Positions 3,375-20,354 of a DNA stretch of 20,597 nucleotides are shown piece by piece. Below the pieces are notes generated by a model. That model worked only from the letters and a program-made list of their open reading frames with translations. It was not told the origin of the DNA and did not search any database. The translations under genes were made by a program, and so were the position numbers. This DNA is from a virus. Its lineage: Duplodnaviria; Heunggongvirae; Uroviricota; Caudoviricetes. The stretch lies in the IMG/VR virus record IMGVR_UViG_2534681697_000013; one strand, given 5' to 3'. Positions within the stretch are counted from its first letter, which is position 1. Each line of letters opens with the position of its first letter.

Positions 3375-3428
3375 TGTGTATTGCAATGTGTATTGCAAAT
3401 TGGCGATCGGGATGGGTGTGTATTGCAA
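3375..3428 (+). repeat. Three direct copies of TGTGTATTGCAA (3375..3386, 3387..3398, 3417..3428); candidate integrase arm-type sites
   Basis: Exact 12-mers between the left junction and the int start; two more copies sit just inside the right junction. Confidence 0.55.
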
Positions 3429-3446
3429 ATCTCTTGAGGGCTTTTA

Positions 3447-4688: not shown

Positions 4689-4689
4689 T

Positions 4690-4947: not shown

Positions 4948-4960
4948 CCAGTAAATAATG

Positions 4961-4983
4961 CCCCTCATCACGAGGGGTTTTTT
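4961..4983 (+). terminator. Intrinsic terminator after alpA
   Basis: Stem CCCCTC / GAGGGG with loop ATCAC, followed by TTTTTT. Confidence 0.7.
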
Positions 4984-5003
4984 GTCTATAAGGTAAAAAC
5001 GCG

Positions 5004-5582
5004 ATGAATAAAAATATTGCCGTGACGGGCAAGGGGTACGCTCGTCCAGTGAAAAAATTCTGCGATATTCGTGATCTCGTCGTTCTGCGCTTTGATAGTG
5101 TGAACGTTCGTGTGGTGTATCTGAACGGCGATCCGTGGTTTGTTGCAAAAGATGTTTGTGCTGCGCTGGAACTAACCAATTCGCGTACGGCGTTGCAGAT
5201 GCTTGATGATGATGAAAAGGGAGTAAATTTAACTTACACCCCAGGAGGAAATCAGAATATGAGAATTATCTCTGAGTCAGGTTTCTACAAACTAATAGCC
5301 CGCAGCCGCAAAGCAACGACGCCTGGCACATTTGCTCATCGTTTCAGTAACTGGGTATTCAGAAATGTGATACCAGGTATCAGAAAAACGGGGACTTATG
5401 GTATCCCGTGGGGTGCATTACAGGATTTTTCCCGCCGTAAAGAGCAATATCAAATAAGTGCCAGCGAGAAGGGGAGGGAGCTACAGGCATGTAAGCGCAA
5501 AAAGCGTGAGCTGGAGGAAGAAGAAAAAACGCTGATACGTGAATATCAGCCTGAGTTTTACTTTGGTAACCGCATTCAGTGA
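5004..5582 (+). CDS. Bro-N domain protein (antirepressor-like), 192 aa
   Basis: N-terminus VVYLNGDPWFVAKDVCAALELTNSRTALQMLDDDEKG...GGNQNMRIISESGFYKLIARSRKA matches the Bro-N family; C-terminus is a charged coiled-coil-like tail. Confidence 0.78.
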   Translation: MNKNIAVTGKGYARPVKKFCDIRDLVVLRFDSVNVRVVYLNGDPWFVAKDVCAALELTNSRTALQMLDDDEKGVNLTYTPGGNQNMRIISESGFYKLIARSRKATTPGTFAHRFSNWVFRNVIPGIRKTGTYGIPWGALQDFSRRKEQYQISASEKGRELQACKRKKRELEEEEKTLIREYQPEFYFGNRIQ

Positions 5583-5591
5583 CAAAACAAA

Positions 5592-5612
5592 GGCGACCGC
5601 AAAAGGGTCGCC
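5592..5612. terminator. Hairpin between convergent genes (possible bidirectional terminator)
   Basis: Stem GGCGACC / GGTCGCC, loop GCAAAAG. T-rich tract only on the minus-strand side; none on the plus side. Confidence 0.5.
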
Positions 5613-5678
5613 AGTGGGAACAAGGGAAAACAAAAGCATCACCAACAATGCCACATTTGCGGCTGGTGGGCAATGTGA

Positions 5679-5858
5679 TCAGTCAGATTTGGTTCGTTCC
5701 AAGGTTTGCAACGAGAGCTTTTTCCTGTGCTCTTTAAGGAATTTCTCAAGAGCAAACGAACAAGGTGCGAATCTTTCTGATTCATGTTCATGCGCTATAT
5801 TTTTGCGTCGTCTCTTACGAGTTGGTGATGGTGTTTTGGTTGATTCTGTGTCGCTCAT
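5679..5858 (-). CDS. Small basic hypothetical protein, 59 aa (below the ORF-track size cutoff)
   Basis: Minus ATG at 5858 to TGA at 5679 encodes MSDTESTKTPSPTRKRRRKNIAHEHESERFAPCSFALEKFLKEHRKKLSLQTLERTKSD; weak AGGA upstream; directly downstream of the 101-aa minus ORF. Confidence 0.3.
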   Translation of the reverse strand: MSDTESTKTPSPTRKRRRKNIAHEHESERFAPCSFALEKFLKEHRKKLSLQTLERTKSD

Positions 5859-5915
5859 GGTGCTGTCCTGTAAAGCAATGCGCCTGCGTTCCTCAAACTA
5901 TGGCGCTGATATTGG

Positions 5916-6221
5916 CTATTCATGCTCTTTGACCTTGCGTCGCTGGAGTTCTTCACGCGCGACGGTGACGAGTTGCCCGATCTCCTCGGCTGCTTTGATG
6001 CCGATTTGTTCGACCTTAGCCAGGGCATCCAGTGACGACACAAGGGGATTTTCTCCGCTGCCTTCTGCTTGGCGGCGGGCTATTTCTCCGCGCATGGCGG
6101 TTACGATAAATCCGGCATTGCTTTCACCGTCCAGCTTAACGGATTCCATCCCTTGCATAACATCTAGTGGGACTCTGACAGTTGTCAGTTGTGATTTTGC
6201 GTTTTTGTTAGCCGTTGCCAT
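5916..6221 (-). CDS. Hypothetical protein, 101 aa; possible ribbon-helix-helix-type regulator
   Basis: AGGAG 8 nt upstream of ATG; N-terminal QLTTVRVPLDVMQGMESVK resembles a beta-strand plus helix start. Transcribed divergently from the operator region. Function is inferred. Confidence 0.5.
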   Translation of the reverse strand: MATANKNAKSQLTTVRVPLDVMQGMESVKLDGESNAGFIVTAMRGEIARRQAEGSGENPLVSSLDALAKVEQIGIKAAEEIGQLVTVAREELQRRKVKEHE

Positions 6222-6242
6222 TTCTGAAACTCCTAATCATCG

Positions 6243-6320
6243 GTGTGTTTCAGTATACACAAAAAAAGAAATACAAAAAGCCTTGACGTGTGTTTCATGC
6301 GCTCATAACATGAAACACAC
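6243..6320. promoter_or_regulatory. Divergent promoter region with operator-like repeats (candidate genetic switch)
   Basis: Plus strand: TTGACG (6283..6288), 17 bp, TAACAT (6306..6311). Perfect 12-bp inverted repeat GTGTGTTTCATG (6288..6299) / CATGAAACACAC (6309..6320), plus a third half-site GTGTGTTTCA at 6243..6252 over a minus-strand TATACT -10 candidate (6252..6257). Confidence 0.5.
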
Positions 6321-6348
6321 CGAAAGGATTGTTGAAATACAAAGAGCA

Positions 6349-6382
6349 ACGCCCCGCAGTGCTGGGAACACATACGGGGCGT
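6349..6382 (+). other. Stem-loop in the 5' leader of the rightward operon
   Basis: 8-bp stem ACGCCCCG / CGGGGCGT with an 18-nt loop, no T tract after it; lies between the promoter and the first ORF. Confidence 0.35.
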
Positions 6383-6411
6383 CTAACCAACAACGTAAAC
6401 TAGGAGCCGTT

Positions 6412-6609
6412 ATGGTTGCTGTAAATCATATACCACACCTTGTACACACACAAACGGCCTTTGTGTGGCGTTTTCTGGCACTGAGTGCCGGAGAATCTCA
6501 AATCATCCACGTAACCGCCTGGACGGAACGCGAAGCGCGTAGCCGTTGCCCGTCCGGTTGTGTTGCTGTATTCGCTGCAAAAATCCGCCAGGGAGTGAGT
6601 CATGCTTAA
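6412..6609 (+). CDS. Hypothetical small protein, 65 aa
   Basis: AGGAG 5 nt upstream of ATG 6412; stop overlaps the next ORF start at 6602. It is the C-terminal frame of the otherwise implausible track ORF 5539..6609. Confidence 0.4.
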   Translation: MVAVNHIPHLVHTQTAFVWRFLALSAGESQIIHVTAWTEREARSRCPSGCVAVFAAKIRQGVSHA

Positions 6610-6787
6610 AACCTTCCGTGTATTTGCCCGAGCTGTTAACCCAATAGGCCACACAATTGGTATCGCTCAGAATGTGAAGGCTGTTAATGTTCAGACGGCT
6701 ATTGCTGCGGTGAGAAGCGAATCATCAGAATATGGCTTATCACAAGTCATTATTTCAGCAGTGTATGAATTAAAAGAGGTGCATTAA
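6602..6787 (+). CDS. Hypothetical protein, 61 aa
   Basis: GGAGTGAG upstream of ATG; overlapping, translationally coupled operon layout. Confidence 0.45.
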   Translation: MLKTFRVFARAVNPIGHTIGIAQNVKAVNVQTAIAAVRSESSEYGLSQVIISAVYELKEVH

Positions 6788-6978
6788 TGCAGGAAATTAC
6801 ATTACACGAAGCCGCTGAACGTGCGCACCAGACAGAAATTATTTGCCGCCTTCTTGAGGTATACCCGAACAAAATTACAGATGCTGATATATCCGCACTG
6901 GCGAGCCTACTGGCGCGTCTTTCGGGAAGTGTCGCTAGTTTTTTGATTGAGGAAGAAAGTAAGCTGGTGGGGGATTAA
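6787..6978 (+). CDS. Hypothetical protein, 63 aa
   Basis: AGAGGTG upstream of ATG; start overlaps the preceding ORF end. Confidence 0.45.
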   Translation: MQEITLHEAAERAHQTEIICRLLEVYPNKITDADISALASLLARLSGSVASFLIEEESKLVGD

Positions 6979-7200
6979 ATGAATACAGAACGGGAAGTCT
7001 TTTTTAAATTGTTAGCATGTGCAGAAAGTTCATTAACTTTAAATAATTCAGCAAAAGCAATATTAAATATGTGGCTTGATTGCATAAATGACAATGAAGA
7101 TGCAAATATTGCTTATGGCCTGTTGTCACTTATTGATGAATCAGCAGAAAAACTCAATGACGCAATAAATAGTGCCCTGCTATCAAATAAGTCGAGTTAA
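6979..7200 (+). CDS. Hypothetical protein, 73 aa (AT-rich gene)
   Basis: Starts right after the previous stop with GGGGGA upstream; markedly lower GC than its neighbours. Confidence 0.5.
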   Translation: MNTEREVFFKLLACAESSLTLNNSAKAILNMWLDCINDNEDANIAYGLLSLIDESAEKLNDAINSALLSNKSS

Positions 7201-7217
7201 GTCGAGGAATAAATAAT

Positions 7218-7517
7218 ATGGAAATGAAAAATTCTGGCTTTATTGCCAGCGGCCCCGCTCGACCTGAATTTATGAACGGCGATATTTACCGCGATAAATA
7301 CGGCGGCACGGTAACGATTAAAGGCGTGGCAGAACGGCGCATCACTTACCGCCGTGAGGGGTATAGCTATGACTGCGTGATGCCTGTTTATCAGTTCCGG
7401 CGTGATTTTTCCCTGGTATATGCCGCACCCCGCAGTAAGCCCATCAGCAGGGAAAAAGCGTGGGGAAATATCCAGAAAATGAAAACCATGATTAACGGAT
7501 TCAGAGGTAAAAAATGA
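7218..7517 (+). CDS. Hypothetical protein, 99 aa
   Basis: GAGGAA upstream of ATG; stop overlaps the primase start. Confidence 0.55.
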   Translation: MEMKNSGFIASGPARPEFMNGDIYRDKYGGTVTIKGVAERRITYRREGYSYDCVMPVYQFRRDFSLVYAAPRSKPISREKAWGNIQKMKTMINGFRGKK

Positions 7518-9268
7518 AACTGGCACCGAACGTAAAACAGCAGTCACGCGGCATAAAACACAAAGGAACAGAAGTAATTATTTTTGCGGGTAGTGATGCC
7601 TGGGCACACGCGAAACAATGGCAGGAACATGATGCGCGTATGGCCGGAGATAATGAGCCTCCTGTGTGGCTTGGGGAGCAGCAGCTATCCGAACTGGATA
7701 ATCTGCAAATTGTGCCGGAAGGCCGAAAATCAGCACGCATATACAGGGCCGGATATCTTGCGCCTGTAATGATAAAGGCGATTGGTCAGAAGCTGGCGGC
7801 AGCAGGCGTACAGGATGCAAATTTTTATCCTGAGGGTATGCACGGCCAGGAGGTGCAGAACTGGCGCGAATATCTGGCCCGTGAACGCCAGAATCTTTCT
7901 GATGGTCTGGTCATTGAGCTTCCGGTAAAGCAAAAGGCGCAACTTTCGCAGATGGCGGACAGTGAGCGCGCGCAGTTGCTTGCCGATCGCTTTGATGGCG
8001 TTTGCGTACATCCTGAAAGTGAAATCGTTCACGTATGGCGCGGCGGGGTATGGTGTCCGGTCAGCACAATGGAACTTAGCCGCGAAATGGTGGCGATCTA
8101 TTCAGAGCACAGGGCCACTTTCAGCAAGCGCGTAATCAATAACGCCGTGGAAGCGTTAAAAGTTATTGCCGAACCAATGGGCGAGCCGTCTGGCGATTTG
8201 CTGCCGTTCGCCAATGGTGCGCTTGACCTGAAAACGGGGGAATTTTCCCCGCACACGCCGGAGAACTGGATCACCACGCACAACGGCATTGAGTACACGC
8301 CACCAGCACCAGGGGAGAACATCCGCGATAACGCGCCAAACTTTCATAAATGGCTTGAGCACGCAGCCGGAAAAGACCCGCGCAAGATGATGCGTATATG
8401 TGCCGCGCTGTACATGATTATGGCGAACCGGTACGACTGGCAGATGTTTATTGAGGCCACCGGAGACGGCGGGAGCGGTAAAAGTACATTCACACACATA
8501 GCCAGCCTTCTGGCAGGGAAACAGAACACGGTAAGCGCTGAAATGACATCGCTTGATGATGCTGGTGGACGTGCGCAGGTTGTCGGGAGTCGTCTTATCG
8601 TCCTGGCTGACCAGCCGAAATATACAGGCGAAGGAACGGGCATCAAGAAAATCACAGGCGGCGACCCCGTGGAAATTAACCCGAAATATGAAAAGCGTTT
8701 CACGGCGGTAATCAGGGCGGTGGTGCTGGCGACCAACAACAACCCGATGATATTCACCGAACGGGCCGGAGGTGTGGCACGTCGTCGCGTGATTTTCCGT
8801 TTCGACAATATCGTCAGTGAGGCCGAAAAAGACAGGGAGCTACCGGAAAAGATTGCGGCTGAAATCCCCGTTATTATCCGCCGATTGCTGGCGAACTTTA
8901 CCGACCCTGAGAAGGCACGGGCTTTACTACTGGAACAGCGTGACGGTGATGAAGCACTGGCAATAAAGCAACAGACGGATCCGGTTATTGAGTTTTGCCA
9001 GTTCCTGAATTTTCTGGAGGAAGCGCGCGGCCTGATGATGGGTGGCGGTGGTGATTCAGTGAAGTACACGACCAGGAACAGCCTTTACCGCGTCTATCTG
9101 GCGTTTATGGCATACGCGGGCAGGAGCAAACCGCTAAACGTGGCTGAGTTCAGCAAGGCCATGAAGCCAGCGGCGAAAGTTTACGGGCATGAATATATTA
9201 CGCGAAAAGTTAAGGGAGTAACGCAGACCAACGCAATTACAACAGACGATTGCGACGCGTTTTTATAA
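7514..9268 (+). CDS. Primase-helicase (P4 alpha-type), 584 aa
   Basis: Walker A GDGGSGKST and downstream helicase-like region; last gene of the small-ORF operon and followed directly by iterons. Confidence 0.88.
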   Translation: MKLAPNVKQQSRGIKHKGTEVIIFAGSDAWAHAKQWQEHDARMAGDNEPPVWLGEQQLSELDNLQIVPEGRKSARIYRAGYLAPVMIKAIGQKLAAAGVQDANFYPEGMHGQEVQNWREYLARERQNLSDGLVIELPVKQKAQLSQMADSERAQLLADRFDGVCVHPESEIVHVWRGGVWCPVSTMELSREMVAIYSEHRATFSKRVINNAVEALKVIAEPMGEPSGDLLPFANGALDLKTGEFSPHTPENWITTHNGIEYTPPAPGENIRDNAPNFHKWLEHAAGKDPRKMMRICAALYMIMANRYDWQMFIEATGDGGSGKSTFTHIASLLAGKQNTVSAEMTSLDDAGGRAQVVGSRLIVLADQPKYTGEGTGIKKITGGDPVEINPKYEKRFTAVIRAVVLATNNNPMIFTERAGGVARRRVIFRFDNIVSEAEKDRELPEKIAAEIPVIIRRLLANFTDPEKARALLLEQRDGDEALAIKQQTDPVIEFCQFLNFLEEARGLMMGGGGDSVKYTTRNSLYRVYLAFMAYAGRSKPLNVAEFSKAMKPAAKVYGHEYITRKVKGVTQTNAITTDDCDAFL

Positions 9269-9281
9269 TTTTTTGTAAAAG

Positions 9282-9503
9282 CCATCTACCCCATCTACCT
9301 GAACGAAATAAACGCATATTATTCAACATGATAAGTGGGTATAGGGCTAGGTAGAAGGCTAATAAAAGCTCTCTACCTCTTCTACCTGATTTTATCAGTT
9401 TCAGGTAGCAGGGTAGACGGCAGGTAGAGGAGTCAAAAAAGCTATCTACCCGCTGAAAGCGGCGCCATTACTGACATGATGAGCATTCGGGTAGATGGGT
9501 AGA
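9282..9503. repeat. Iteron cluster with AT-rich core; candidate replication origin
   Basis: (C)CATCTACC-type repeats on the plus strand at 9284, 9293, 9371, 9381, 9444 and inverted GGTAGA copies at 9350, 9404, 9412, 9423, 9490, 9498; terminal blocks CCATCTACCCCATCTACC and GGGTAGATGGGTAGAGG mirror each other; AT-rich stretch around 9300..9345. Confidence 0.6.
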
Positions 9504-9553
9504 GGGGGGGAGGCACAACTAAAAACTTTTTAAACGAGGGGGGGTGAAAATAA

Positions 9554-9868
9554 ATGCGCATACATAAAAATCACTTAACAAACATGCCAGCCGAAAACAT
9601 GAATCAGGGGCGACAAATGACCAAAATTCGCAGAGACAGAACACAGGCAAAATATAAAGCGTTAGACATGACAGAGCTTTCCTTAAAGGTGGCAATCAAA
9701 GCGATAGACCACCACACACGGGCAGGATACGCGAAGGAACATCCCGACCTGATAAGCGCATTCATGACCACAGCAGCGGCAAACTTTGCCACGCTGACAG
9801 AACGGGAGATTGCCGAAGCGGAACAGGTGACAACCATCAATGTTAAAACCGGAGAGCAGACAGCATGA
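9554..9868 (+). CDS. Hypothetical protein, 104 aa (true start may be a downstream Met)
   Basis: ORF after a G-rich Shine-Dalgarno-like tract; stop overlaps the SSB-like gene start (ATGA). Confidence 0.5.
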   Translation: MRIHKNHLTNMPAENMNQGRQMTKIRRDRTQAKYKALDMTELSLKVAIKAIDHHTRAGYAKEHPDLISAFMTTAAANFATLTEREIAEAEQVTTINVKTGEQTA

Positions 9869-10287
9869 CAGCACAGATAGCGGCTTACGGGCGGCTGGTG
9901 GCTGACCCGCAGTTAAAGACCACCAGCAAAGGGACACAAATGGCGATGGCGAGTATGGCGGTTCCCCTGCCGTGCAGCCAGGCAGATGACGGAACGGCGA
10001 CGATGTGGTTATCCGTCCTGGCGTTTGGCAGACAGGCCGACGCACTGGCAAAACACCACAAAGGCGAACTGGTGAGCGTGGCGGGTAACATGCAGGTAAG
10101 CCAGTGGACAGGCCAGAACGGCGAAACGCGGCGGGGCTGGCAGGTTATCGCAGACAGCGTAATCAGTGCGCGAACGGCGCGACCGGGCGGCAAAAAAGGC
10201 CAGCAGGGGCAGGCCACTGACGCACTGAACAGGGCAAAACAACAGTCGGGGAATGATGATCCGTACGGCGATAATATACCGTTTTAA
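9865..10287 (+). CDS. ssb: Single-stranded DNA-binding protein-like, 140 aa
   Basis: OB-fold-like core WLSVLAFGRQADALAKHHKGELVSVAGNMQVSQWTGQNGETRRGWQVIADSV, Gly/Gln-rich linker and a C-terminal ...DDPYGDNIPF tail resembling the SSB DDDIPF tip. Confidence 0.7.
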   Translation: MTAQIAAYGRLVADPQLKTTSKGTQMAMASMAVPLPCSQADDGTATMWLSVLAFGRQADALAKHHKGELVSVAGNMQVSQWTGQNGETRRGWQVIADSVISARTARPGGKKGQQGQATDALNRAKQQSGNDDPYGDNIPF

Positions 10288-10304
10288 ATTCTGCAAACAA
10301 AAAG

Positions 10305-10333
10305 ATGCCGGAAAAAAATAGATTTTCCGGCAT
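10305..10333. terminator. Strong hairpin after the SSB-like gene (putative terminator)
   Basis: Perfect 11-bp stem ATGCCGGAAAA / TTTTCCGGCAT with a 7-nt loop; no clear T tract after it, so terminator function is uncertain. Confidence 0.4.
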
Positions 10334-10498
10334 GCTACATAAATCCCGACCAAAGGAAGTAAATACATTAACACGAATTATCAGCACTGAAGTTGTTACG
10401 GCATATTTTATACAACATTGCACTTGGTTGCATGTGTTCGCATAGCAGACATCGGTAATAGAATATATTCACAATTATTTGTAATGAATGTAAAGAGG

Positions 10499-11545
10499 AT
10501 GAGTATGGTTGATTTATATTCGCCTACACAGCTTGTGCAGGTGGCTAATGCTGAAGATGTGCAAAAAAATTAAATGCGTTGTTTACCAGTTTGTTTTTCA
10601 CTCGCTCGGTAATGTTTGAATCGAGAGACATTATTCTTGATACGATCGACGATCCAAATATCCCGATCGCGGCGTTTTGCTCTCCTATGGTGGGCAGTAA
10701 AGTTTCACGAGATGAGGGATACGAATCAAAAACAATTCGTCCAGGTTATATGAAGCCGAAAAGCAGCATTGATCCAAATAAGTTAGCTGTGCAGCCCTGC
10801 TGGTGTGTCACCTGAGCAATACAATGCTTTTGGGGCGCGTAATATTAAAGTTAAACAGGCGATTGTAAATCAGGCTAAAGCTATTCGTGCACGTATTGAA
10901 TGGCTTGCTGTTCAGGCAATCACAACGGGGAAAAATATCATTGAGGGCGATGGTATTGAACGTTATGAGCTGGACTGGAATATAAAACCACAAAATATCA
11001 TCACTCAGTCTGGCGGTACTGAGTGGTCAGGTAAGGATAAAGAAACTTTTGATCCAAATGATGATATTGAGAGCTACGCAGAATTTAGTGAGGGCGTCAC
11101 TAATATCATCATTATGGGTGGTAATGTATGGAAGAAATACCGTTCATTCAGAGCGATAAAAGAGGCTTTGGATACCCGTCGTGGTTCTAATTCCGAACTG
11201 GAAACGGCCCTTAAAGACCTTGGTGATTCGGTGAGTTTTAAAGGGTATATGGGCGATGTTGCGATTGTTGTTTACAGCGGGCGTTATACCGACGAGGACG
11301 GAACAGAAAAACATTTCCTTGATCCTGATTTGATGGTGCTTGGCAATACGGCTCTTCAGGGGATTGTCGCCTATGGCGGTATTCAGGATCCGGAGCTAAT
11401 CCGAATGGGGCTGACTAAAGCCGAACTTGCACCGAAAAACTATATTGTGCCTGGTGATCCGGCTATTGAATATGTGCAGACACATTCAGCACCACAGCCA
11501 ATACCGGCCCGCATCAATCGTTTTGTTACCGTTCGCATTGGCTAA
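10499..11545 (+). pseudogene. Major capsid protein gene (lambda gpE-like), disrupted by two frameshifts
   Basis: Three consecutive frames each align with successive parts of gpE. First: MSMVDLYSPTQLVQVANAEDVQKN*, stopping at 10571. Second, to 10815: KKLNALFTSLFFTRSV...PGYMKPKSSIDPNKLAVQP. Third, 10805..11545: ...ITQSGGTEWSGKDKETFDPNDDIESY...DTRRGSNSELETALKDLG...GDVAIVVYSG.... The breaks sit in an A7 run (10563..10569) and a CCC run (10795..10797). Confidence 0.75.
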
Positions 11546-11554
11546 GGGGGAGCA

Positions 11555-11896
11555 ATGGCTACTCATTACACTGAACTCATGGCTGGCACTGAAGCACTGG
11601 TGACTACGCTGGGGATATTTTCAGCTAATAAAGGGGTAATTCCTGCATTTACGCCACTGATGCAGGAAGATGCAACAGGTGCACTGGTGGTATGGGATGG
11701 TTCGAGCGTAGGTAAAGCGGTTTATGTTTCCGCTGTACAAATCGACACCGCGAAAAAAACACAGGCTCAGGTCTATAAGACAGGTGTCTTAAATGTTGAT
11801 GCTCTGAACTGGCCTGAGTCTGTTAAAGAACTGTCAGTAAAGGTTGCAGCGTTTGTTGGCTCAGGTATTTCTGTTCAGCCGCTGGCTCGTGTGTAA
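11555..11896 (+). CDS. Head decoration protein (lambda gpD-like), 113 aa, apparently intact
   Basis: AAGGGGGA upstream of ATG. LVVWDGSSVGKAVYVSAV, VYKTGVLNVDALNWPE and AAFVGSGISV parallel the gpD motifs [34 protein letters not shown] and [10 protein letters not shown]. Confidence 0.72.
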   Translation: MATHYTELMAGTEALVTTLGIFSANKGVIPAFTPLMQEDATGALVVWDGSSVGKAVYVSAVQIDTAKKTQAQVYKTGVLNVDALNWPESVKELSVKVAAFVGSGISVQPLARV

Positions 11897-11907
11897 AGGG
11901 GGATACA

Positions 11908-12291
11908 ATGCAGAATGATTACAATGACCTTAAGCCAATTGCCGAAATGATGTACCCGAATCCAGCTGTAGAGGAATTAAAAGCTATCGCTGACAAAATG
12001 TGTTTAAGCGAGCGCCTTGTTGATATGAATCAGGTGATGGAAATTACAACCCTGAGTCGTCGTACACTGCTAAACCTTGAGGCTAGTGGAGAGTTCCCGG
12101 AGCGTGTGCAGGTTACGGAAGGGCGTAAGGCCTGGTATTTAAGTGAAGTGATCGACTGGATAAATAATATTCCTCGCGCTTCTGAATATTGCCGCGTACC
12201 TGTCCCAAAAAAGCCAGATGCGGCGCTATGCCTCAAGATTGAGCGTGTACGCCGCAATGCACGGGATGGTCGCTATAAGCTGATTGGTTGA
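11908..12291 (+). CDS. AlpA/MerR-type wHTH DNA-binding protein, 127 aa
   Basis: AGGGGGA upstream of ATG; motif MNQVMEITTLSRRTLLNLEASGEFPERVQVTEGRKAWYLSEVIDWI matches the AlpA family. Sits between the decoration gene and cos. Confidence 0.6.
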   Translation: MQNDYNDLKPIAEMMYPNPAVEELKAIADKMCLSERLVDMNQVMEITTLSRRTLLNLEASGEFPERVQVTEGRKAWYLSEVIDWINNIPRASEYCRVPVPKKPDAALCLKIERVRRNARDGRYKLIG

Positions 12292-12343
12292 TGAAATTAG
12301 GGCCCGCTCTGGCTGGCGGGTCCTTTCCGGTGATCCGGTAGGC

Positions 12344-12381
12344 TACGGGGCGGCGACCTCGCGGGTTTTCGCTATTTATGA
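12344..12381. other. cos site: lambda-type cosN (cohesive-end 12-mer GGGCGGCGACCT at 12348..12359)
   Basis: TACGGGGCGGCGACCTCGCGGGTTTTCGCTATTTATGA matches the lambda cosN region; downstream sequence up to the small terminase gene differs from lambda cosB. Confidence 0.75.
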
Positions 12382-12492
12382 GCCTTTTTCGGGTGCTGGT
12401 GGTGGTTTTGTTGTTCGCTCTATCTCTATGAATAAAAAGGAAAAGATAAAGCCAATACACCAACCTGAAACATTACTTAAGTGGGGATATTG

Positions 12493-13035
12493 ATGAAATC
12501 GCACCTGATGAACAAAAAAAACATGGCGCAAAGCTGCCGTGTAAGTGCGACAGCGTTCGACAAGTGGGGAGTGACTCCCGTTGAACGTAAAGGCCGCGAG
12601 GCGTTTTATGATGTTGCCAGCGTAATAGACAATCGGGTTAGCAATGCAATTAACCAGATTACAGACGACAAAGGCGAGATTGATGATGATGAACTCCTAC
12701 GAGTCAGGATCAGATTGCTGACAGCACAGGCAGAGGCGCAGGAGCTTAAAAACGAGCGCGAACGCGGCGACGTTATTGATACAGCGTTTTGTATATACGT
12801 GCTTTCAAAATTGGCGAGTCAGATTTCTTCAATCATGGACAGCCTGCCGCTTGCCATGACAAGGAAGTTTCCCGACATGAAGCCGTCTATGCTGGATGGA
12901 CTGAAAAAAGAAGTTATCAGAGCCTGTAACGCATGCGCAAAACTTGACGAAAACATACCGCTGATGCTGTCCGATTATCTGATGGAAACTGCCGGAAACG
13001 TACCGGATAAGTTGCAGCCGAATAAAGATAAGTAA
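12493..13035 (+). CDS. Terminase small subunit homologue (Nu1-like), about 180 aa; start could instead be 12481 (GTG) or 12508 (ATG)
   Basis: LLTAQAEAQELKNERERGDVIDTAFCIYVLSKLASQISSIMDSLPLAMTRKFPDMKPSMLDGLKKEVIRACNACAKLDENIPLMLSDYL parallels the Nu1 C-terminal half in this window; N-terminus MNKKNMAQ... parallels Nu1 MEVNKKQLA...; immediately downstream of cos. Confidence 0.8.
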   Translation: MKSHLMNKKNMAQSCRVSATAFDKWGVTPVERKGREAFYDVASVIDNRVSNAINQITDDKGEIDDDELLRVRIRLLTAQAEAQELKNERERGDVIDTAFCIYVLSKLASQISSIMDSLPLAMTRKFPDMKPSMLDGLKKEVIRACNACAKLDENIPLMLSDYLMETAGNVPDKLQPNKDK

Positions 13036-13046
13036 CGTAGTACGCT

Positions 13047-13328
13047 ATGACTGAATCCGAAATACTGCGATTAATCCGCCGTGCTTGTGGAATCAGCAAG
13101 CAGCATGACGAACAGGCCACGCAGCCGGACAGCGTGACCGCAGATAATTATGTGCGTGTAGTGGCTGAGGTGATGCGCCGTGACGGTATTGAGCTTAACG
13201 GCGTGGATATGCGCAACATACGAACAAGAGTCCTTGAGTTGCTGGCATATCGTCGCCGTTCTCAACAACGGAGGGAGAGCGCGAAAAATACTTACCAGTG
13301 GAAGAAGCCGGAACGATTGCGGCGGTAA
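13047..13328 (+). CDS. Hypothetical protein, 93 aa
   Basis: ORF 12 nt after the small terminase stop; no strong Shine-Dalgarno; function unknown. Confidence 0.45.
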   Translation: MTESEILRLIRRACGISKQHDEQATQPDSVTADNYVRVVAEVMRRDGIELNGVDMRNIRTRVLELLAYRRRSQQRRESAKNTYQWKKPERLRR

Positions 13329-13579
13329 CTTGCTGATATTCCCGATAACGCAAAATTGCGCTGGCTGACTTGTTGCATTGCAAAAAGTTAAGCAGGAAGG
13401 CACGGCCTGTAAGATGGGATGCAGTAAGTAGTTCAAGGCTACCTTGTGCTGGCACGCACAGTTAAGCCGTCGGTGCTGGATATCCCCCACTGGGGGAAAA
13501 GCTGGCTACATCCCTCACATCTGAGGACTGATAACGCGACATTGCGCTGGCTGGCAAAGTGCAAAATTGCACGATGGCC

Positions 13580-13726
13580 TAACCCATTGATTATTTCGAA
13601 AACCTGCAATGCAGGAAATCGGGGAAGTAAGCCTAAGCTATTGATTGTTTCGAAAACCCCCATTGGGGGATGTCGGGAAAGTAAGACTAACCCATTGATT
13701 CTTCCACAATCCTCAATTTGAGGAGG
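13580..13726. repeat. Tandem direct repeats of about 54 bp (2.5 copies), each with a short inverted repeat
   Basis: Units begin TAACCCATTGATTATTTCGAAAACC, TAAGCTATTGATTGTTTCGAAAACC and TAACCCATTGATTCTTCC; each contains a small palindrome (CTGCAATGCAG, CCCCCATTGGGGG, CCTCAATTTGAGG) and ends GG(G)AAGTAAG(C/A)C. Confidence 0.55.
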
Positions 13727-14041
13727 CCGGAACGTCTACATAGCTGCATCGCCGTAATGATGATTCAGCCCACCAGCCAAATCAGCACAGCAACGACAGA
13801 ATAGCCCGACACAGAAAAACCACGAATATGGGGTTTTTGTTATGACATGGTCATGATGACCACTCATACAAAACAGGTAAAGCCCACCAGCCTGATTAAA
13901 GGTTAACCGGAAAAAAGCCAGGTATCCAATCTCGATATGGGGATCCCTATATCGACATTAACGCCCACTAAAACTGTGCATATATGCATAGAAAAAGCAT
14001 CCACCAGCTTTATGACGGATGCCGCTCATCTTATAAATAAT

Positions 14042-14065
14042 CGTGTATTGCAGTGTGTATTGCGA
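14042..14065 (+). repeat. Two direct copies of (C/T)GTGTATTGC(A/G) (14042..14052, 14054..14065); candidate arm-type sites at the right end
   Basis: Same motif and orientation as the three copies upstream of int. Confidence 0.5.
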
Positions 14066-14137
14066 CTCCTTTAAACGATAGGTCTGAGCATTCGTAATGT
14101 ACTGTTTTTAAATTTTATTTTTTCCTGTCTTTTCATA

Positions 14138-14145
14138 AAGGCGAT
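14138..14145. other. Right junction core (attR-like) AAGGCGAT
   Basis: Direct repeat of 3239..3246; portal-like sequence resumes in frame immediately after. Confidence 0.6.
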
Positions 14146-14917
14146 GTATGCCGCCACCATTGAGAGTGAGCTGGATACGCAGTCAGCGATGGATTTTATT
14201 CTGGGCGCGAACAGTAAGGAGCAGCGGGACAAGCTGACCGGCTGGATTGGTGAAATTGCCGCGTATTACGCCGCAGCACCGGTCCGTCTGGGAGGCGCAA
14301 AAGTGCCGCACCTGATGCCGGGGGACTCACTGAACCTGCAGACGGCTCAGGACACGGATAACGGCTACTCCGTGTTTGAGCAGTCACTGTTGCGGTATAT
14401 CGCTGCCGGGCTGGGTGTCTCGTATGAGCAGCTTTCCCGGAATTACGCCCAGATGAGCTACTCCACGGCACGGGCCAGTGCGAACGAGTCGTGGGCGTAC
14501 TTTATGGGGCGGCGAAAATTCGTCGCATCCCGTCAGGCGAGCCAGATGTTTCTGTGCTGGCTGGAAGAGGCCATCGTTCGCCGCGTGGTGACGTTACCTT
14601 CAAAAGCGCGTTTCAGCTTTCAGGAAGCCCGCAGCGCCTGGGGGAACTGTGACTGGATAGGCTCCGGTCGTATGGCCATCGATGGTCTGAAAGAAGTACA
14701 GGAAGCGGTGATGCTGATAGAAGCCGGACTGAGTACCTACGAGAAAGAGTGCGCAAAACGCGGTGACGACTATCAGGAAATTTTTGCCCAGCAGGTCCGT
14801 GAAACGATGGAGCGCCGTGCAGCCGGTCTTAAACCGCCCGCCTGGGCGGCTGCGGCATTTGAATCCGGACTGCGACAATCAACAGAGGAGGAGAAGAGTG
14901 ACAGCAGAGCTGCGTAA
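14138..14917 (+). pseudogene. B: Portal protein gpB, C-terminal part (portal reading frame resumes at 14146)
   Basis: Translation (KA)MYAATIESELDTQSAMDFILGANSKEQRDKLTGWIGEIAAYY...GLRQSTEEEKSDSRAA* is the portal C-terminus; the last 20 nt overlap the GTG start of C. Confidence 0.9.
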
Positions 14918-16217
14918 TCTCCCGCATATTGCCAGCATGGCTTTTAATGAGCCGCTGATGCTTGAACCCGCCTATGCGCGGGTTTTCTTTTGTGCGCTTG
15001 CAGGCCAGCTTGGGATCAGCCGCCTGACGGATGCGGTGTCCGGTGACAGCCTGACTGCCGGAGAGGCACCCGCGACGCTGGCGTTATCCGTTAATGATGA
15101 CGGACCACGACAGGCCCGCAGTTATCAGGTCATGAACGGCATCGCCGTGCTGCCGGTTTCCGGCACGCTGGTCAGCCGGACGCGGGCGCTGCAGCCGTAT
15201 TCGGGGATGACCGGTTACAACGGCATTATCGCCCGTCTGCAACAGGCTGCCAGCGACCCGATGGTGGACGGCATTCTGCTGGATATGGACACGCCCGGCG
15301 GAATGGTGGCAGGGGCATTTGACTGCGCTGACATCATCGCCCGTGTGCGTGACATAAAGCCGGTATGGGCGCTGGCCAATGACATGAACTGCAGCGCAGG
15401 TCAGCTGCTTGCCAGTGCCGCCTCCCGGCGTCTGGTCACGCAGACCGCCCGGACAGGCTCCATCGGCGTCATGATGGCTCACAGTAATTACGGTGCTGCG
15501 CTGGAGAAACAGGGCGTGGAAATCACGCTGATTTACAGCGGCAGCCATAAGGTGGATGGCAACCCCTACAGCCATCTACCGGATGATGTCCGGGAAACAC
15601 TGCAGTCCCGGATGGATGCAACCCGCCGGATGTTTGCACAGAAGGTGTCGGCATATACCGGCCTGTCCGTGCAGGCTGTGCTGGATACCGAGGCTGCAGT
15701 GTACAGCGGTCAGGAGGCCATTGATGCCGGACTGGCTGATGAACTTGTTAACAGTACCGATGCGATCACCGTCATGCGTGATGCACTGGATGCACGTAAA
15801 TCCCGTCTCTCAGGAGGGCGAATGACCAAAGAGACTCAATCAACAACTGTTTCAGCCACTGCTTCGCAGGCTGACGTTACTGGCGTGGTGCAAGCGACGG
15901 AGGGCGAGAACGCCAGCGCTGCGCAGCCGGACGTGAACGCGCAGATCACCGCAGCGGTTGCGGCAGAAAACAGTCGCATTATGGGGATCCTCAACTGTGA
16001 GGAGGCTCACGGACGCGAAGAACAGGCACGCGTGCTGGCCGAAACCCCTGGTATGACCGTGGAAACGGCCCGCCGCATTCTGGCAGCTGCACCACAGAGT
16101 GCACAGGCGCGCAGTGACACTGCGCTGGATCGTCTGATGCAGGGGGCACCGGCACCGCTGGCTGCAGGTAACCCGGCATCTGATGCCGTTAACGATTTGC
16201 TGAACACACCAGTGTAA
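14898..16217 (+). CDS. C: Head protease / scaffold protein (lambda gpC-like), 439 aa, GTG start
   Basis: VTAELRNLPHIASMAFNEPLMLEPAYARVFF...NDLLNTPV*. The track ORF 14763..16217 extends upstream only because of an in-frame upstream start. Confidence 0.94.
   Translation: MTAELRNLPHIASMAFNEPLMLEPAYARVFFCALAGQLGISRLTDAVSGDSLTAGEAPATLALSVNDDGPRQARSYQVMNGIAVLPVSGTLVSRTRALQPYSGMTGYNGIIARLQQAASDPMVDGILLDMDTPGGMVAGAFDCADIIARVRDIKPVWALANDMNCSAGQLLASAASRRLVTQTARTGSIGVMMAHSNYGAALEKQGVEITLIYSGSHKVDGNPYSHLPDDVRETLQSRMDATRRMFAQKVSAYTGLSVQAVLDTEAAVYSGQEAIDAGLADELVNSTDAITVMRDALDARKSRLSGGRMTKETQSTTVSATASQADVTGVVQATEGENASAAQPDVNAQITAAVAAENSRIMGILNCEEAHGREEQARVLAETPGMTVETARRILAAAPQSAQARSDTALDRLMQGAPAPLAAGNPASDAVNDLLNTPV
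15612..16217 (+). CDS. nu3: Scaffold protein gpNu3 (in-frame internal start within C), 201 aa
   Basis: ATG at 15612 in the C frame gives a 606-nt ORF, the nested arrangement known from lambda; no independent sequence evidence beyond position. Confidence 0.7.
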   Translation: MDATRRMFAQKVSAYTGLSVQAVLDTEAAVYSGQEAIDAGLADELVNSTDAITVMRDALDARKSRLSGGRMTKETQSTTVSATASQADVTGVVQATEGENASAAQPDVNAQITAAVAAENSRIMGILNCEEAHGREEQARVLAETPGMTVETARRILAAAPQSAQARSDTALDRLMQGAPAPLAAGNPASDAVNDLLNTPV

Positions 16218-16226
16218 GGGATGTTT

Positions 16227-16471
16227 ATGACGAGCAAAGAAACCTTTACCCATTACCAGCCGCTGGGCAACAGTGACCCGGCTCATACCGCAACCGCGCC
16301 CGGCGGATTGAGTGCGAAAGCGCCTGCAATGACCCCGCTGATGCCGGACACCTCCACCCGTTCTACAAGTCCGGCACGTTCCGTTATGAGGATGTGCTCT
16401 GGCCGGAGGCTGCCAGCGATGAGACGAAAAAACGGACCGCGTTTGCCGGAACGGCAATCAGCATCCTTTAA
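16227..16471 (+). pseudogene. D: Head decoration protein gpD, frameshifted by an internal deletion
   Basis: N-terminal frame reads [43 protein letters not shown] then nonsense; the C-terminal segment [36 protein letters not shown] is in a different frame, from 16361. The locus is about 88 nt shorter than a 333-nt D gene. Confidence 0.75.
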
Positions 16472-16492: not shown

Positions 16493-16513
16493 GCCGCCTG
16501 TGCGGCTTTTTTT
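16493..16513 (+). terminator. Intrinsic terminator-like hairpin between D and E
   Basis: Stem GCCGC / GCGGC with loop CTGT, followed by TTTTTTT. Confidence 0.55.
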
Positions 16514-16526
16514 ACGGGATTTTTTT

Positions 16527-17552
16527 ATGTCGATGTACACAACCGCCCAGCTGCTGGCGGCAAATGAGCAGAAATTTAAGTTTGATCCGCTGTTTCTGCG
16601 TCTCTTTTTCCGTGAGAGCTATCCCTTCACCACGGAGAAAGTCTATCTCTCACAAATTCCGGGACTGGTAAACATGGCGCTGTACGTTTCGCCGATTGTT
16701 TCCGGTGAGGTTATCCGTTCCCGTGGCGGATCCACCTCTGAATTTACACCGGGATATGTCAAGCCCAAGCATGAGGTGAATCCGCAGATGACCCTGCGTC
16801 GCCTGCCGGATGAAGATCCGCAGAATCTGGCGGACCCGGCTTACCGCCGCCGTCGCATCATCCTGCAGAACATGCGAGACGAAGAGCTGGCCATTGCTCA
16901 GGTCGAAGAGATGCAGGCCGTTTCTGCCGTGCTCAAGGGCAAATACACCATGACCGGTGAAGCCTTCGATCCGGTTGAGGTGGATATGGGCCGCAGTGCG
17001 GCGAACAACATCACGCAGTCCGGCGGCACGGAGTGGAGCAAGCGTGACAAGTCCACGTATGACCCGACCGACGATATCGAAGCCTACGCGCTGAACGCCA
17101 GCGGCGTGGTGAATATCATCGTGTTTGACCCGAAAGGCTGGGCGCTGTTCCGTTCCTTCAAAGCCGTCAGGGAGAAGCTGGATACCCGTCGCGGCTCTCA
17201 TTCCGAACTGGAGACAGCGGTAAAAGACCTGGGCAAAGCGGTGTCTTATAAGGGAATGTATGGCGATGTGGCCATCGTCGTGTATTCCGGACAGTACGTG
17301 GAAAACGGCGTCAAAAAGAACTTCCTGCCGGACAACACGATGGTGCTGGGTAACACTCATGCACGCGGTCTGCGCTCCTATGGCTGTATTCAGGATGCGG
17401 ATGCATTGAGTGAGGGTATTAATGCGTCTCCCCGTTATCCGAAAAACTGGAAGACATCCGGCGATCCGGCGCGAGAGTTCACCATGATTCAGTCAGCACC
17501 GCTGATGCTGCTGGCTGATCCTGATGAGTTCGTGGCCGTTCAACTGGCGTAA
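16527..17552 (+). CDS. E: Major capsid protein (lambda gpE-like), 341 aa
   Basis: MSMYTTAQLLAANEQKFKFDPLFLRLFFRESYPFTTEKVYLSQIPGLVNMALYVSPIVSG...DPDEFVAVQLA*; the track ORF starts at an upstream in-frame codon. Confidence 0.96.
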   Translation: MSMYTTAQLLAANEQKFKFDPLFLRLFFRESYPFTTEKVYLSQIPGLVNMALYVSPIVSGEVIRSRGGSTSEFTPGYVKPKHEVNPQMTLRRLPDEDPQNLADPAYRRRRIILQNMRDEELAIAQVEEMQAVSAVLKGKYTMTGEAFDPVEVDMGRSAANNITQSGGTEWSKRDKSTYDPTDDIEAYALNASGVVNIIVFDPKGWALFRSFKAVREKLDTRRGSHSELETAVKDLGKAVSYKGMYGDVAIVVYSGQYVENGVKKNFLPDNTMVLGNTHARGLRSYGCIQDADALSEGINASPRYPKNWKTSGDPAREFTMIQSAPLMLLADPDEFVAVQLA

Positions 17553-17593: not shown

Positions 17594-17603
17594 ATGACGA
17601 AAG
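17594..17603 (+). pseudogene. FI: Remnant of the gpFI gene: start codon plus about 3 codons, then the IS element
   Basis: GGAGGAG followed by ATGACGAAAG at the position expected for FI; the reading frame runs straight into the IS end GTAAGCGC. Confidence 0.55.
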
Positions 17604-17634
17604 TAAGCGCTCCGAGAAGTACGTAGCGTAAGGA

Positions 17635-19098
17635 TTATTTTACAGACGAGAAGTTCCAGGGCAGCAGTTCATGCACTTGGTTCGACGGCCAGTCATTGAG
17701 CTTCTCGATCACTTCGCGCAACCAGTCCTCCGGCTCCACTTCGTTCTGTTTGCAGGTGACCAGCAGACTGTAGATGATCGCCGCACTTTCTCCTCCCTTG
17801 TCTGAGCCGAAAAAGAGATAATTTTTTCTTCCAACCGCCACCGATCGTAACGCGTTTTCACCGATGTTGTTGTCTATTTCCACCCAGCCGTCACGACAGA
17901 ACTCGTTCAGCGCATTCCAGTGATTCAGGATATAGTCGAACGCCTTCGCCATCTCCGCATGTTTCGACAGCGTTTCCCTCTGCAACTGTATCCAGTCGTA
18001 CAACGACTGCATCAACTGGACGCTTCTGGCTTTTCTGACTGCAAGCCGTTCCTCTGCCGGACTGCCACGTATCTCCGCTTCTATGTCGTATAACTCTGCT
18101 ATCCGTCTGAGCGCTTCCTGAGTCATTTCTGTCGGACGGCGCACATCCTCGTCATGGATTTTTCGGCGGGCGTGGGCCAGGCACCCGGCTTCCTTCACCC
18201 GGCCCGTTTCGTACAGTACGTTATAACCTGCATAGGCATCAGCCTGCAGTACGCCCTGATACTTTGCCAGGTGGAGCTGCGGATGTTCTCCTTTGCGATC
18301 TGCCGAATACGCGAACCAGACGGCTGCCGGCAGGGATGAACCCGCATTACGATCATCCCTGACGTATACCCACAGACGACCCGTTTTCGTCTTTCCGTTC
18401 CCCGGGGCCAGTACTTTCACCGGAGTGTCATCTGCGTGCACCTTTCCTGCCTCCAGAACATAGTCATTCAGCGCTATATACAGAGGACGGAGTTTGTCTG
18501 CCATTTCTGATACCCAGCGCACCATGGTATTACGGCTCAGCTCCACGACCTGTCGCGCGTATATTTCTGACTGGCGATATAAAGGGATATGTTCCATATA
18601 TTTGCTGACCAGGATCCGTGCAAGTAACCCTGCACTGGCATAACCGCGTTCGATCGGTTTAGGGGGAAGTGGTGCCTGAACGATGACATCACACCGGCTA
18701 CAGGCCAGTTTGGGACGTATGGTTTCGATAACTTTAAAGGCGGTATTAATGATATCCAGTTGCTCTGAGATTGTTTCCCCCATTTCTTTCAGAACACCTC
18801 CACAGGCCGGGCAACTGGTTTCAGCAGGCAGAAGGCGATGTGTCTCCCGGGGAAGTTCTGCCGGCAGCGGTTTTCGTGAAGATTTTCGTCCCGGGGATTC
18901 AGGCTTACTGGCGATCGGGTTTTCTGACGGGGGACTGGTGTCAGGTGAATCTGTGACTGACGATGCATCTTCCAGAAGATTTCTGGCTGTGTTCAGCCGG
19001 TTTTCCAGTTCCGACAGTCGTTTTTCTGCCTGTCGGATCTGATTTTCAAGCTTATGACGCTTTTTCTCTGAACTCTGGCCGAACAGCATACGACGCAA
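17635..19098 (-). CDS. tnpC: IS66-family transposase TnpC, 487 aa as an uninterrupted ORF
   Basis: ...[29 protein letters not shown]..., with Cys-rich CPACGG and CSRCD motifs. The expected N-terminal about 30 codons ([31 protein letters not shown]) lie in another frame upstream. Confidence 0.88.
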
Positions 19099-19252
19099 CC
19101 TGTCGAGTTGCGCTTTCAGCCGTTCAATTTCCTGCTCATAGCCCGCGACCTGACAGCATACTGTCCAAGCCGACTCTGTTGCTTACGCACATGGCTTTAA
19201 GCAGCTCAATATCATCGGGGAGTTCATTGTTCATTCCTTGTTTTATCACGGG

Positions 19253-20271: not shown

Positions 20272-20354
20272 CGTTCGTGTCCATCAATATAGATGGGCGC
20301 GATTGTTGCCAGACAGGACAATTTTCACAAGACGTCGCTGATGGGGCGCTTACT

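Follow-up and report, generated by a model that had tools for sequence, protein, structure and literature searches.

The satellite described here carries two genes of the AlpA family, one beside its integrase gene and one at the end of its capsid genes, close to the cos site. What is the second gene, referred to below as alpA2, for? The sequence-only reading of the window (the whole stretch of 20,597 nucleotides analysed) offered two answers, a packaging-related role at cos or the regulation of late genes. We conclude that AlpA2 is most likely a regulator of its own capsid operon rather than a packaging factor.

Positions 1-16361 of the window match the chromosome of Escherichia coli EC93 with 99.4% nucleotide identity. 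The layout given below is based on the RefSeq annotation of the EC93 region, on Pfam and PHROG scans, and on a comparison of att sites. The element is a PICI of the helper-embedded type (HE-PICI), of approximately 10.9 kb, which lies inside a lambdoid prophage's portal gene. Its orientation is that of the helper late gene it interrupts, and its int-alpA, Bro, replication and late zones follow the published order. An identity block, AAGGCGAT, found in two copies at 3239-3246 and 14138-14145, marks the point at which the portal gene is split. A further mark of HE-PICIs is a doubled TGTATTGC motif on either side of the attP centre, at about 81 bp upstream and about 132 bp downstream. Here the doubled motif is found at 3377-3396 and 14044-14063, and its distances to the crossover equal the published spacings. 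The features, from left to right, are as follows.

292-2217: terL of the lambdoid prophage, left part
2214-2420: W of the prophage, left part
from 2417: N-terminal part of the prophage portal gene, left part
about 3247-14145: the inserted satellite
3447-4688: int of the satellite
4690-4947: int-adjacent alpA of the satellite
5004-5582: satellite gene for a Bro-N protein
between the Bro-N and DUF4222 genes: ylcI-like and icd-like genes and small ORFs of the satellite
7218-7517: DUF4222 gene of the satellite
7514-9268: primase gene of the satellite
9276-9510: iteron ori of the satellite, with at least 12 copies of TCTACC/GGTAGA iterons right behind the primase gene
9865-10287: ssb of the satellite
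10305-10333: perfect 11-bp inverted repeat ATGCCGGAAAA/TTTTCCGGCAT right after ssb, a hairpin or terminator
10408-10443, + strand: direct-repeat array with a 10-bp period, TTATAC-N4-TTGCAC-N4-TTGCAT-N3-TTCGCAT, the candidate AlpA2 operator
10437-10464, + strand: promoter-like site TTCGCA-16-TAGAAT, the sole promoter-like match on the + strand in 9200-13500
10505-11545, + strand: major capsid gene, lambda E-like (Phage_cap_E)
11555-11896, + strand: head decoration gene, lambda D-like (Pfam HDPD)
11908-12291, + strand: alpA2, the last gene of the capsid cassette
12299-12324, + strand: GC-rich hairpin with a 10-bp stem (-24 kcal/mol), directly after alpA2 and running into cosQ (GGGTCCT)
12348-12359, + strand: cosN, GGGCGGCGACCT, of lambda type
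12395-12468, + strand: satellite-specific cosB-like region, with GCTGGTGGTGGTTTTGTTGTTCG at the R3 position (12395-12417) and its inverted partner CAATACACCAACCTGA at 12453-12468
12493-13035, + strand: terS, Nu1-like, full length at 180 residues (Pfam Phage_Nu1, 3e-24)
13047-13328: conserved 93-residue ORF of the satellite
14144-14917: C-terminal part of the prophage portal gene, right part
between the portal C-terminal part and E: the prophage protease gene and then D
16500-17552: E of the prophage, right part
about 17.6-20.3 kb: IS66-family element

Compared with EC93, the satellite's major capsid gene is broken in the window by frameshifts of -1 at 10570 and +1 at 10793; the EC93 and LH09-a copies of the satellite are intact. 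The alpA2 reading frame is intact. It runs from an ATG through 127 codons to a TGA, begins 11 nt past the stop codon of the decoration gene, and has a Shine-Dalgarno sequence (AGGGGGA) 4 nt before its start. We confirm that it is real and coding.

The sequence-only reading described a 127-residue protein with a central AlpA-like wHTH, and this description is borne out. The Pfam domain Phage_AlpA (PF05930) is recognised over residues 36-85 (profile positions 2-51 of 51) with an E value of 7.6e-9 and 35.8 bits, against a cutoff of 21. The AlphaFold model, built from 17 sequences, predicts a wHTH and wing at residues 36-86 with pLDDT values of 86-93, together with a pair of helices at the N-terminus (8-30) and, after a linker, a C-terminal helix (105-119). 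The predicted three-helix wHTH with its β-hairpin wing is superimposable on the solved members of PF05930. The only PHROG label obtained was PHROG 2790, 'excisionase and transcriptional regulator' (1e-49), and the sequence search of solved structures gave a single significant match, the AlpA-family excisionase 8c3t (2e-9). RefSeq labels the protein 'helix-turn-helix transcriptional regulator' or 'AlpA family transcriptional regulator'. In a BFVD fold search the matches were all generic AlpA, excisionase and PrtN-like wHTH proteins, and none fitted the full-length architecture. Searches of Rfam (at gathering thresholds) and NCBIfam with the window and the AlpA2 protein gave no match.

The nearest family is thus the MerR-like wHTH of PF05930, which includes the GIsul2 excisionase (PDB 8c3t), P4 Vis, CP4-57 AlpA and the int-adjacent AlpA of PICIs. 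These proteins are of about 65-85 residues, whereas AlpA2 is longer, having a conserved two-helix N-terminal extension, a Pro-rich linker and a basic C-terminal helix. It also differs from them in its location, about 7 kb from int and last in the capsid operon, independent of the type of integrase. The proposal that it is separate from the int-adjacent alpA is likewise correct, the product of the 4690-4947 gene being only 26% identical to it. That gene fills the role of the Gram-negative PICI master regulator AlpA, which is encoded directly downstream of int in essentially all E. coli PICIs and is a positive autoregulator (PMC6092414). The AlpA of Pseudomonas aeruginosa might suggest a Q-like antiterminator. 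It has eight helices, with an N-terminal ring in the RNA exit channel and a C-terminal HTH, and uses a single element between -35 and -10 (PMC9371919). We rejected this analogy: AlpA2 is predicted to have a central wHTH with a β wing in its 127 residues, the fold is unrelated, the P. aeruginosa protein does not belong to Pfam Phage_AlpA, and the shared name is coincidental.

AlpA2 proteins form a subfamily of 112-127 residues found in at least 13 enterobacterial genera: Escherichia, Enterobacter, Citrobacter, Klebsiella, Salmonella, Pluralibacter, Trabulsiella, Buttiauxella, Scandinavium, Kosakonia, Kluyvera, Superficieibacter and Cedecea. Among 5426 complete E. coli genomes, 408 carry alpA2, and the capsid promoter region is found in 366, a number close to this. 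A scan of genome contigs for AlpA2 loci added four further loci. The PF05930 domain is present in all of the homologues. Truncated forms also exist, among them the 73-77-residue fragments P0094 and P0095. The gene is under selection: in homologues that are 50-87% identical there are 42 invariant columns, which take in the entire recognition helix (T47-E58) as well as the wing and portions of the two extensions.

The order Phage_cap_E, HDPD, AlpA2 is found in all the loci retrieved (L002-L011, L013-L018 and five IMG/VR contigs). The rest of the satellite is far less constant. The integrases of these loci are 24% identical or have no significant match to each other, and the att sites differ, some being chromosomal and some helper-embedded. 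The int-adjacent regulators are of three unrelated types, and wherever the integrase end was retrieved, an RDF-type gene other than alpA2 lies beside int. The packaging genes also vary, as described below. The capsid cassette and AlpA2 are therefore co-inherited independently of the integrase, the int-adjacent alpA and the packaging module.

A comparison with EcCICFT073 shows where the modules begin and end. The two satellites have 87% nucleotide identity over the stretch from DUF4222 through primase and ori to ssb (7207-10193), the primase proteins being 98% identical. The similarity stops at 10193, restarts at cosQ-cosN (12318-12390), stops again where TerS replaces Rpp, and restarts at the 93-residue ORF (13047-13340). 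By these breakpoints AlpA2 belongs to the capsid module (10193-12318), with the cosB-TerS/Rpp module separate from it. EcCICFT073 has homologues of the capsid and decoration proteins (55% and 54% identity), but at the position of AlpA2 it has c1501, an acidic protein of 137 residues. AlpA2 is absent. The published c1501::tetA island (PMC6092414) was considered as a proxy for an alpA2 knock-out and rejected: c1501 is unrelated to AlpA2, and those data therefore say nothing about it.

If AlpA2 is inherited with the capsid genes, what might it bind? Upstream of the capsid gene there is an array that reads TTATAC AACA TTGCAC TTGG TTGCAT GTG TTCGCAT in the window. It consists of three to four direct TTRYAY repeats, with the consensus TTATAC-N4-TTGCAC-N4-TTGCAC-N4-TTGCAY across loci. 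It is present in all 10 distinct AlpA2 loci compared, once in each and only upstream of the capsid gene, and it likewise occurs once in the window. The ten loci are from Escherichia (two types), Salmonella, Pluralibacter, Buttiauxella, Kosakonia, Kluyvera, Superficieibacter, Cedecea and one metagenomic contig, and the intergenic sequence around the array has diverged between them. The expected count of the triple-repeat pattern in a shuffled window is 0.01. No such array was found in 49 kb of CFT073 including EcCICFT073, so that both AlpA2 and the array are absent from that satellite. An IMG/VR scan for the triple repeat identified capsid-decoration-AlpA2 modules in 5 of the 120 matches listed, most of the others being unrelated contigs; the pattern is too short for a collection of this size, and the scan is uninformative on exclusivity. 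The possibility that the array is a replication origin was rejected, the iterons of the ori being the TCTACC/GGTAGA repeats at 9276-9510.

The array is closely associated with a promoter-like site and is bounded by hairpins. In the window the -35 element of the promoter-like site overlaps the fourth, degenerate repeat. Most other AlpA2 loci, although not all, have instead an extended -10 (TGnTAnnAT). Each locus has a hairpin or terminator ahead of the array. The inverted repeat after ssb has equivalents at the same place in five other loci (L005, L006, L009, L016 and L017). In the window it scores as a terminator on the minus strand only, with no T-run on the + strand. This hairpin insulates the capsid cassette from the replication module. 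At the place of the hairpin that follows alpA2, L017 and EcCICFT073 have canonical intrinsic terminators. Together, the flanking hairpins, the array and the promoter outline a self-contained capsid cassette, in the order hairpin, array and promoter, major capsid gene, decoration gene, alpA2, hairpin, cosQ.

On the basis of these observations, we hypothesise that AlpA2 binds the array and autoregulates the satellite capsid cassette, and we put the probability of this at roughly 0.5. For proteins of the excisionase fold, the signature operator is a set of direct repeats that follow one another at one helical turn. Given that the synteny is constant while the integrase, the int-adjacent regulator and the packaging genes vary, AlpA2 is the only protein having a recognised DNA-binding domain that is co-conserved with the array, and this is why we propose it as the binder. 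The invariant recognition helix is paralleled by an invariant putative DNA target. AlpA2 monomers would bind the three to four TTRYAY repeats head-to-tail and cooperatively through the invariant wHTH, the repeats following at intervals of one helical turn and either overlapping the -35 of the capsid promoter or lying just upstream of it. The circuit would be autoregulatory because alpA2 is the last gene of the operon that it would control. The comparison establishes the gene, its fold, the cassette, the array and the way in which these are inherited together, whereas we infer both the binder and the sign of the regulation. Positive autoregulation is favoured, and would provide a cooperative late switch, sensitive to gene dosage, for the capsid and decoration proteins after the satellite has replicated. 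The reasons for leaning this way are that the -35 is weak or absent, that most loci have an extended -10, and that the cassette is insulated upstream. Negative autoregulation would be nearly as compatible, with repression by occlusion of the -35. The late-gene regulator of the sequence-only reading is therefore the better fit of its two proposals, given the constant last place of AlpA2 in the capsid cassette and the conserved array with its 10-bp period; the part concerning DNA binding is best regarded as putative.

Several observations weigh against an autoregulator. The array is co-inherited not only with AlpA2 but also with the capsid and decoration genes, and a helper or host factor could bind it. 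The distance from array to -10 varies by about 10 bp, between the E. coli-type loci (the window and L002) and most others. The upstream hairpin has no canonical T-run after it on the + strand of the window, and the folding energy of the hairpin after alpA2 is not clearly better than that of shuffled sequences in the window (z -1.4). Simple operator binding leaves the conserved N- and C-terminal extensions unexplained. In the related EcCICFT073, deleting the capsid and decoration genes had no effect on transfer or on interference (PMC6092414). Covariation between protein and DNA was considered for Buttiauxella and Cedecea and rejected: no convincing covariation of AlpA2 with the repeats was found, since the TTATAC and TTGTAC variants are also seen inside the arrays of loci with a standard wHTH, and TTATAC also in the 50%-identical L017.

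The position of AlpA2 between the capsid genes and cos, which was also noted earlier, is correct: it follows the E-like and D-like genes and ends 57 bp before cosN. It was from this adjacency that a packaging role was suggested. AlpA2 would in that case bind the cos region (12292-12492) and help or redirect terminase, by analogy with the wHTH of Nu1 or Rpp, and it is true that Rpp and TerS read cosB using the same MerR-like fold (PMC6739421). The cosN of the satellite is an exact match to the cos of the EC93 helper prophage, and the similarity to it remains close from cosQ to about 34 bp past the start of cosN, with a few differences in the cosQ flank. Beyond this, the cos regions of AlpA2 loci differ. 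AlpA2 orthologues with a near-identical wHTH are found with three packaging set-ups: a satellite Nu1-like TerS with GGTGGTGG-type cosB, Rpp with CCACCACC-type cosB, and cosB of the helper (lambda) type with neither TerS nor Rpp. The first is seen in the window, L002, L005 and L009, where TerS has 168-180 residues and cosB has GCTGGTGGTGGTTTTGTTGTTCG at R3 (assigned following Murialdo & Feiss, PMC9026076) and an inverted CAATACACCAACC; the cosB-like region at 12395-12468 is kept only in loci with a Nu1-like TerS. The second is seen in Pluralibacter, where AlpA2 is followed by an extra gene for 131 residues, a cos with an EcCICFT073-like CCACCACCAC cosB, and then an Rpp that is 70% identical to RppA. 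The third is seen in L003 and L004. These varied partners argue against a role at cos, as does the gene between AlpA2 and cos in Pluralibacter, and satellites of the TerS and Rpp types already encode their own cosB reader. The mosaic boundaries likewise part AlpA2 from the cosB-TerS module. Within 12292-12492 no motif or repeat was found that tracks AlpA2; cosQ-cosN is the only part common to all loci, and it is present also in helpers and in EcCICFT073, which has no AlpA2. Nor was any sequence similarity found between AlpA2 and Rpp or Nu1. In those proteins the wHTH is N-terminal and precedes a coiled-coil dimerisation domain, and their genes lie downstream of cosN; AlpA2 shows no homology to RppA, RppB or RppC, is encoded upstream of cosQ, and coexists with Rpp (in Pluralibacter) or with a Nu1-like TerS (in the window). 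The Phage_Nu1 match belongs to the 12493-13035 gene, and AlpA2 has none. We therefore regard a packaging accessory as improbable.

The family of the protein raises a different possibility, that AlpA2 is a directionality factor, which would time the late excision of the satellite from the portal gene or aid excision of the helper. The PHROG label and the best structural match, 8c3t, both point to an excisionase, and the doubled attP arm motif TGTATTGCA (3377-3396 and 14044-14063) has a TATTGCA core in common with many of the promoter repeats. The HE-PICI satellite excises late, after composite replication (PMC10111431), and a second, non-essential alpA that supports helper excision is known, alpA_1 of EcCIMP1 (PMC11773190). 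This reading does not fit well with the same AlpA2 being found with unrelated or 24%-identical integrases and with different att sites. RDFs normally co-evolve with the integrase and the att arms, and AlpA2 shows neither linkage to nor co-variation with a cognate integrase or att site: it is linked in all cases to the capsid genes, some 7 kb away from int, and another RDF-type gene lies beside int in every locus whose integrase end was retrieved. Moreover, the doubled motif of attP is confined to helper-embedded loci and remains TGTATTGC in L005 and L016, whose promoter repeats are different; this implies that it tracks the integrase clade and not AlpA2. We consider a directionality factor quite unlikely. 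A protein of dual function, like Cox or Vis, which would switch on the capsid operon through the TTRYAY array and in helper-embedded satellites also bind the TGTATTGCA arm repeats as a late directionality factor, is improbable, although if true it would couple excision of the satellite, and with it restoration of the helper portal/capsid gene, to the onset of satellite capsid synthesis. AlpA2 might alternatively act in trans, repressing or activating helper or host genes as a form of interference in the manner of PLE CapR or P4 delta, while another factor binds the array. Regulators aimed at the helper are common in satellites, such as PLE CapR (cited in PMC10111431); the conserved N- and C-terminal extensions hint at contact with another protein, and it seems extravagant to devote a regulator to two genes that lack a known phenotype. 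However, no TTRYAY array was found in the helper DNA of the window (9.7 kb) or of the EC93 locus L001 (16.7 kb). Lambdoid late genes have one Q-antiterminated promoter and offer no obvious target for an activator. When the post-ori genes of EcCICFT073 were overexpressed, Rpp was the only inhibitor identified, a result that is uninformative here since EcCICFT073 has no AlpA2. An action in trans seems unlikely, and autoregulation of the capsid cassette remains the preferred reading.

The proposed autoregulatory circuit resembles some known systems. P2 Cox, 186 Apl and Pf4 XisF4 have an excisionase-type wHTH, as does AlpA2. The operators of such dual-purpose RDFs are tandem direct repeats 10-11 bp apart that are bound cooperatively and head-to-tail, and Apl and Cox also regulate transcription (PMC7498355), Cox being an activator of the satellite P4 (Saha et al. 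1989, cited in PMC7498355). XisF4 activates its own expression and switches on other operons and the replication initiator gene (PMC7379572). The array at 10408-10443 has the same architecture as these operators. Cox, Apl and XisF4 function in a lysis-lysogeny switch beside int or the repressor and have a proven function at att; AlpA2, unlike them, is in an operon of structural genes and has no linkage to any integrase.

With regard to the operon, the closest likeness is to the late operon of P4, Psid-sid-delta-psu, which is a capsid-morphogenesis operon of a satellite that encodes its own activator and forms a positive autoregulatory late circuit. P4 delta, an Ogr-type zinc finger, has as its binding site a dyad at about -55, and the late promoters of the helper are likewise activated by it. 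The two operons have in common a (putative) transcription factor of their own and a capsid-decoration-type protein. They differ in that AlpA2 is a wHTH protein with a direct-repeat array, and in that lambdoid helpers have no activator-dependent late promoters.

The element type, the protein family and the gene call (as a RefSeq label) were already known. In the literature searched we found no description of a capsid-linked AlpA2 subfamily with extensions, of the direct-repeat array, or of a modular capsid cassette. The only published 'second alpA' in a PICI is alpA_1 of EcCIMP1, which differs in position and context. Like alpA2, it is an additional gene of the AlpA family carried by an E. coli PICI and lies far from int, and it is dispensable for the satellite's own excision and transfer (PMC11773190). 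It is, however, at the end of the island on the opposite strand, in a satellite that has no structural genes, and it resembles the helper Xis, which it can replace. On this comparison, which is one of position and context, AlpA2 is distinguished by being inside the capsid operon and co-oriented with it. AlpA2 is itself not universal in PICIs, as EcCICFT073 illustrates.

A capsid gene is found in most Gram-negative PICIs and a decoration gene in many. A cassette with its own regulator and operator would imply that the capsid genes are more than passive cargo transcribed by read-through from the early operon. It would also be a testable handle, which could be switched on or off in order to ask what the capsid proteins made by the satellite do. 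More generally, the late regions of PICIs are assembled from interchangeable modules, with a capsid cassette and a cosB-TerS/Rpp cassette meeting at a conserved cosQ-cosN. In satellites, the label 'AlpA family' would take in two or more paralogues of separate function, a point of importance to tools that find satellites with AlpA as a marker. It is worth adding that some members of the subfamily carry substitutions: the Buttiauxella protein has N56D, L57M, E71P and K74T, and its locus has TTATAC repeats, while the Cedecea protein has R52G and its locus TTGTAC repeats.

The helper prophage is lambdoid, and its portal (lambda B-like) gene holds the entire satellite, being cut into two parts at 2417-3298 and 14144-14917. 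This arrangement is that of a PICI of the helper-embedded type (HE-PICI).

Features of the satellite and its helper prophage (window coordinates)
3239-3246 and 14138-14145: att identity block
about 3247-14145: satellite
3377-3396 and 14044-14063: doubled motif TGTATTGCA-N3-TGTATTGC, one in each att arm
3415-3428: third copy of the motif, single, near int
9276-9510: probable satellite origin of replication, with iterons and an AT-rich stretch
12395-12468: satellite cosB, with GGTGGTGG at the R3 position and an inverted CAATACACCAACC
12493-13035: satellite TerS, Nu1-like, full-length, 180 aa
13047-13328: 93-aa ORF, PHROG 1561
about 17603-20300, minus strand: IS66-family element
17635-19098, minus strand: DDE_Tnp_IS66 transposase, within the element
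19597-20271, minus strand: HTH_Tnp_1 protein, within the element

The spacings of the doubled motif match those published for HE-PICIs, and among the loci compared this motif is confined to those that are helper-embedded. Its TATTGCA core is similar to the TTGCAC repeats found 5' of the satellite capsid gene, which are a candidate operator for the AlpA-type protein AlpA2.

For packaging, the satellite carries the Nu1-like TerS in place of Rpp (redirecting phage packaging). With its GGTGGTGG and inverted CAATACACCAACC, the satellite cosB is unlike that of the helper prophage of the comparison strain, E. coli EC93. The same type of cosB is kept together with the same TerS in the Salmonella and Buttiauxella PICIs; in EcCICFT073 (a related E. 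coli PICI) and the Pluralibacter PICIs, a reverse-complement-like CCACCACCAC is found, paired with Rpp. One Pluralibacter locus (L008) has a 131-aa ORF at 1848-2243, between AlpA2 and cos. Its similarity is to Rpp's C-terminal half (35% identical to residues 49-126 of the family member RppA), and it has no winged HTH. It may be an Rpp-derived paralogue.

The probable origin contains at least 12 TCTACC/GGTAGA iterons, which are present in both orientations and on either side of the AT-rich stretch, with the primase gene immediately upstream. At the right end, the 93-aa ORF is shared with EcCICFT073 at 80% nucleotide identity. In the following ~700 bp (13330-14040), which extend up to the att arm, the RefSeq annotation of EC93 places no gene and Rfam gives no match.

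Compared with EC93, the satellite has only about 5 differing positions, against a difference of about 1% in the helper flanks. Two single-nucleotide changes relative to EC93 shift the reading frame of the satellite major capsid gene: a deletion within an A-run (10570) and an insertion (10793). About 75 codons are thereby read in the wrong frame, which contains stops. Among complete E. coli genomes, the best match to 10290-10620, which spans the deletion, is 99.7%, and none reaches 100%. The frameshifted gene could be a strain-specific pseudogene or else a sequencing error.

Similarity to EC93 stops directly downstream of the helper major capsid gene, where the IS66-family element adjoins it. 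Together with the satellite insertion, the helper prophage of this strain therefore carries two disruptions.
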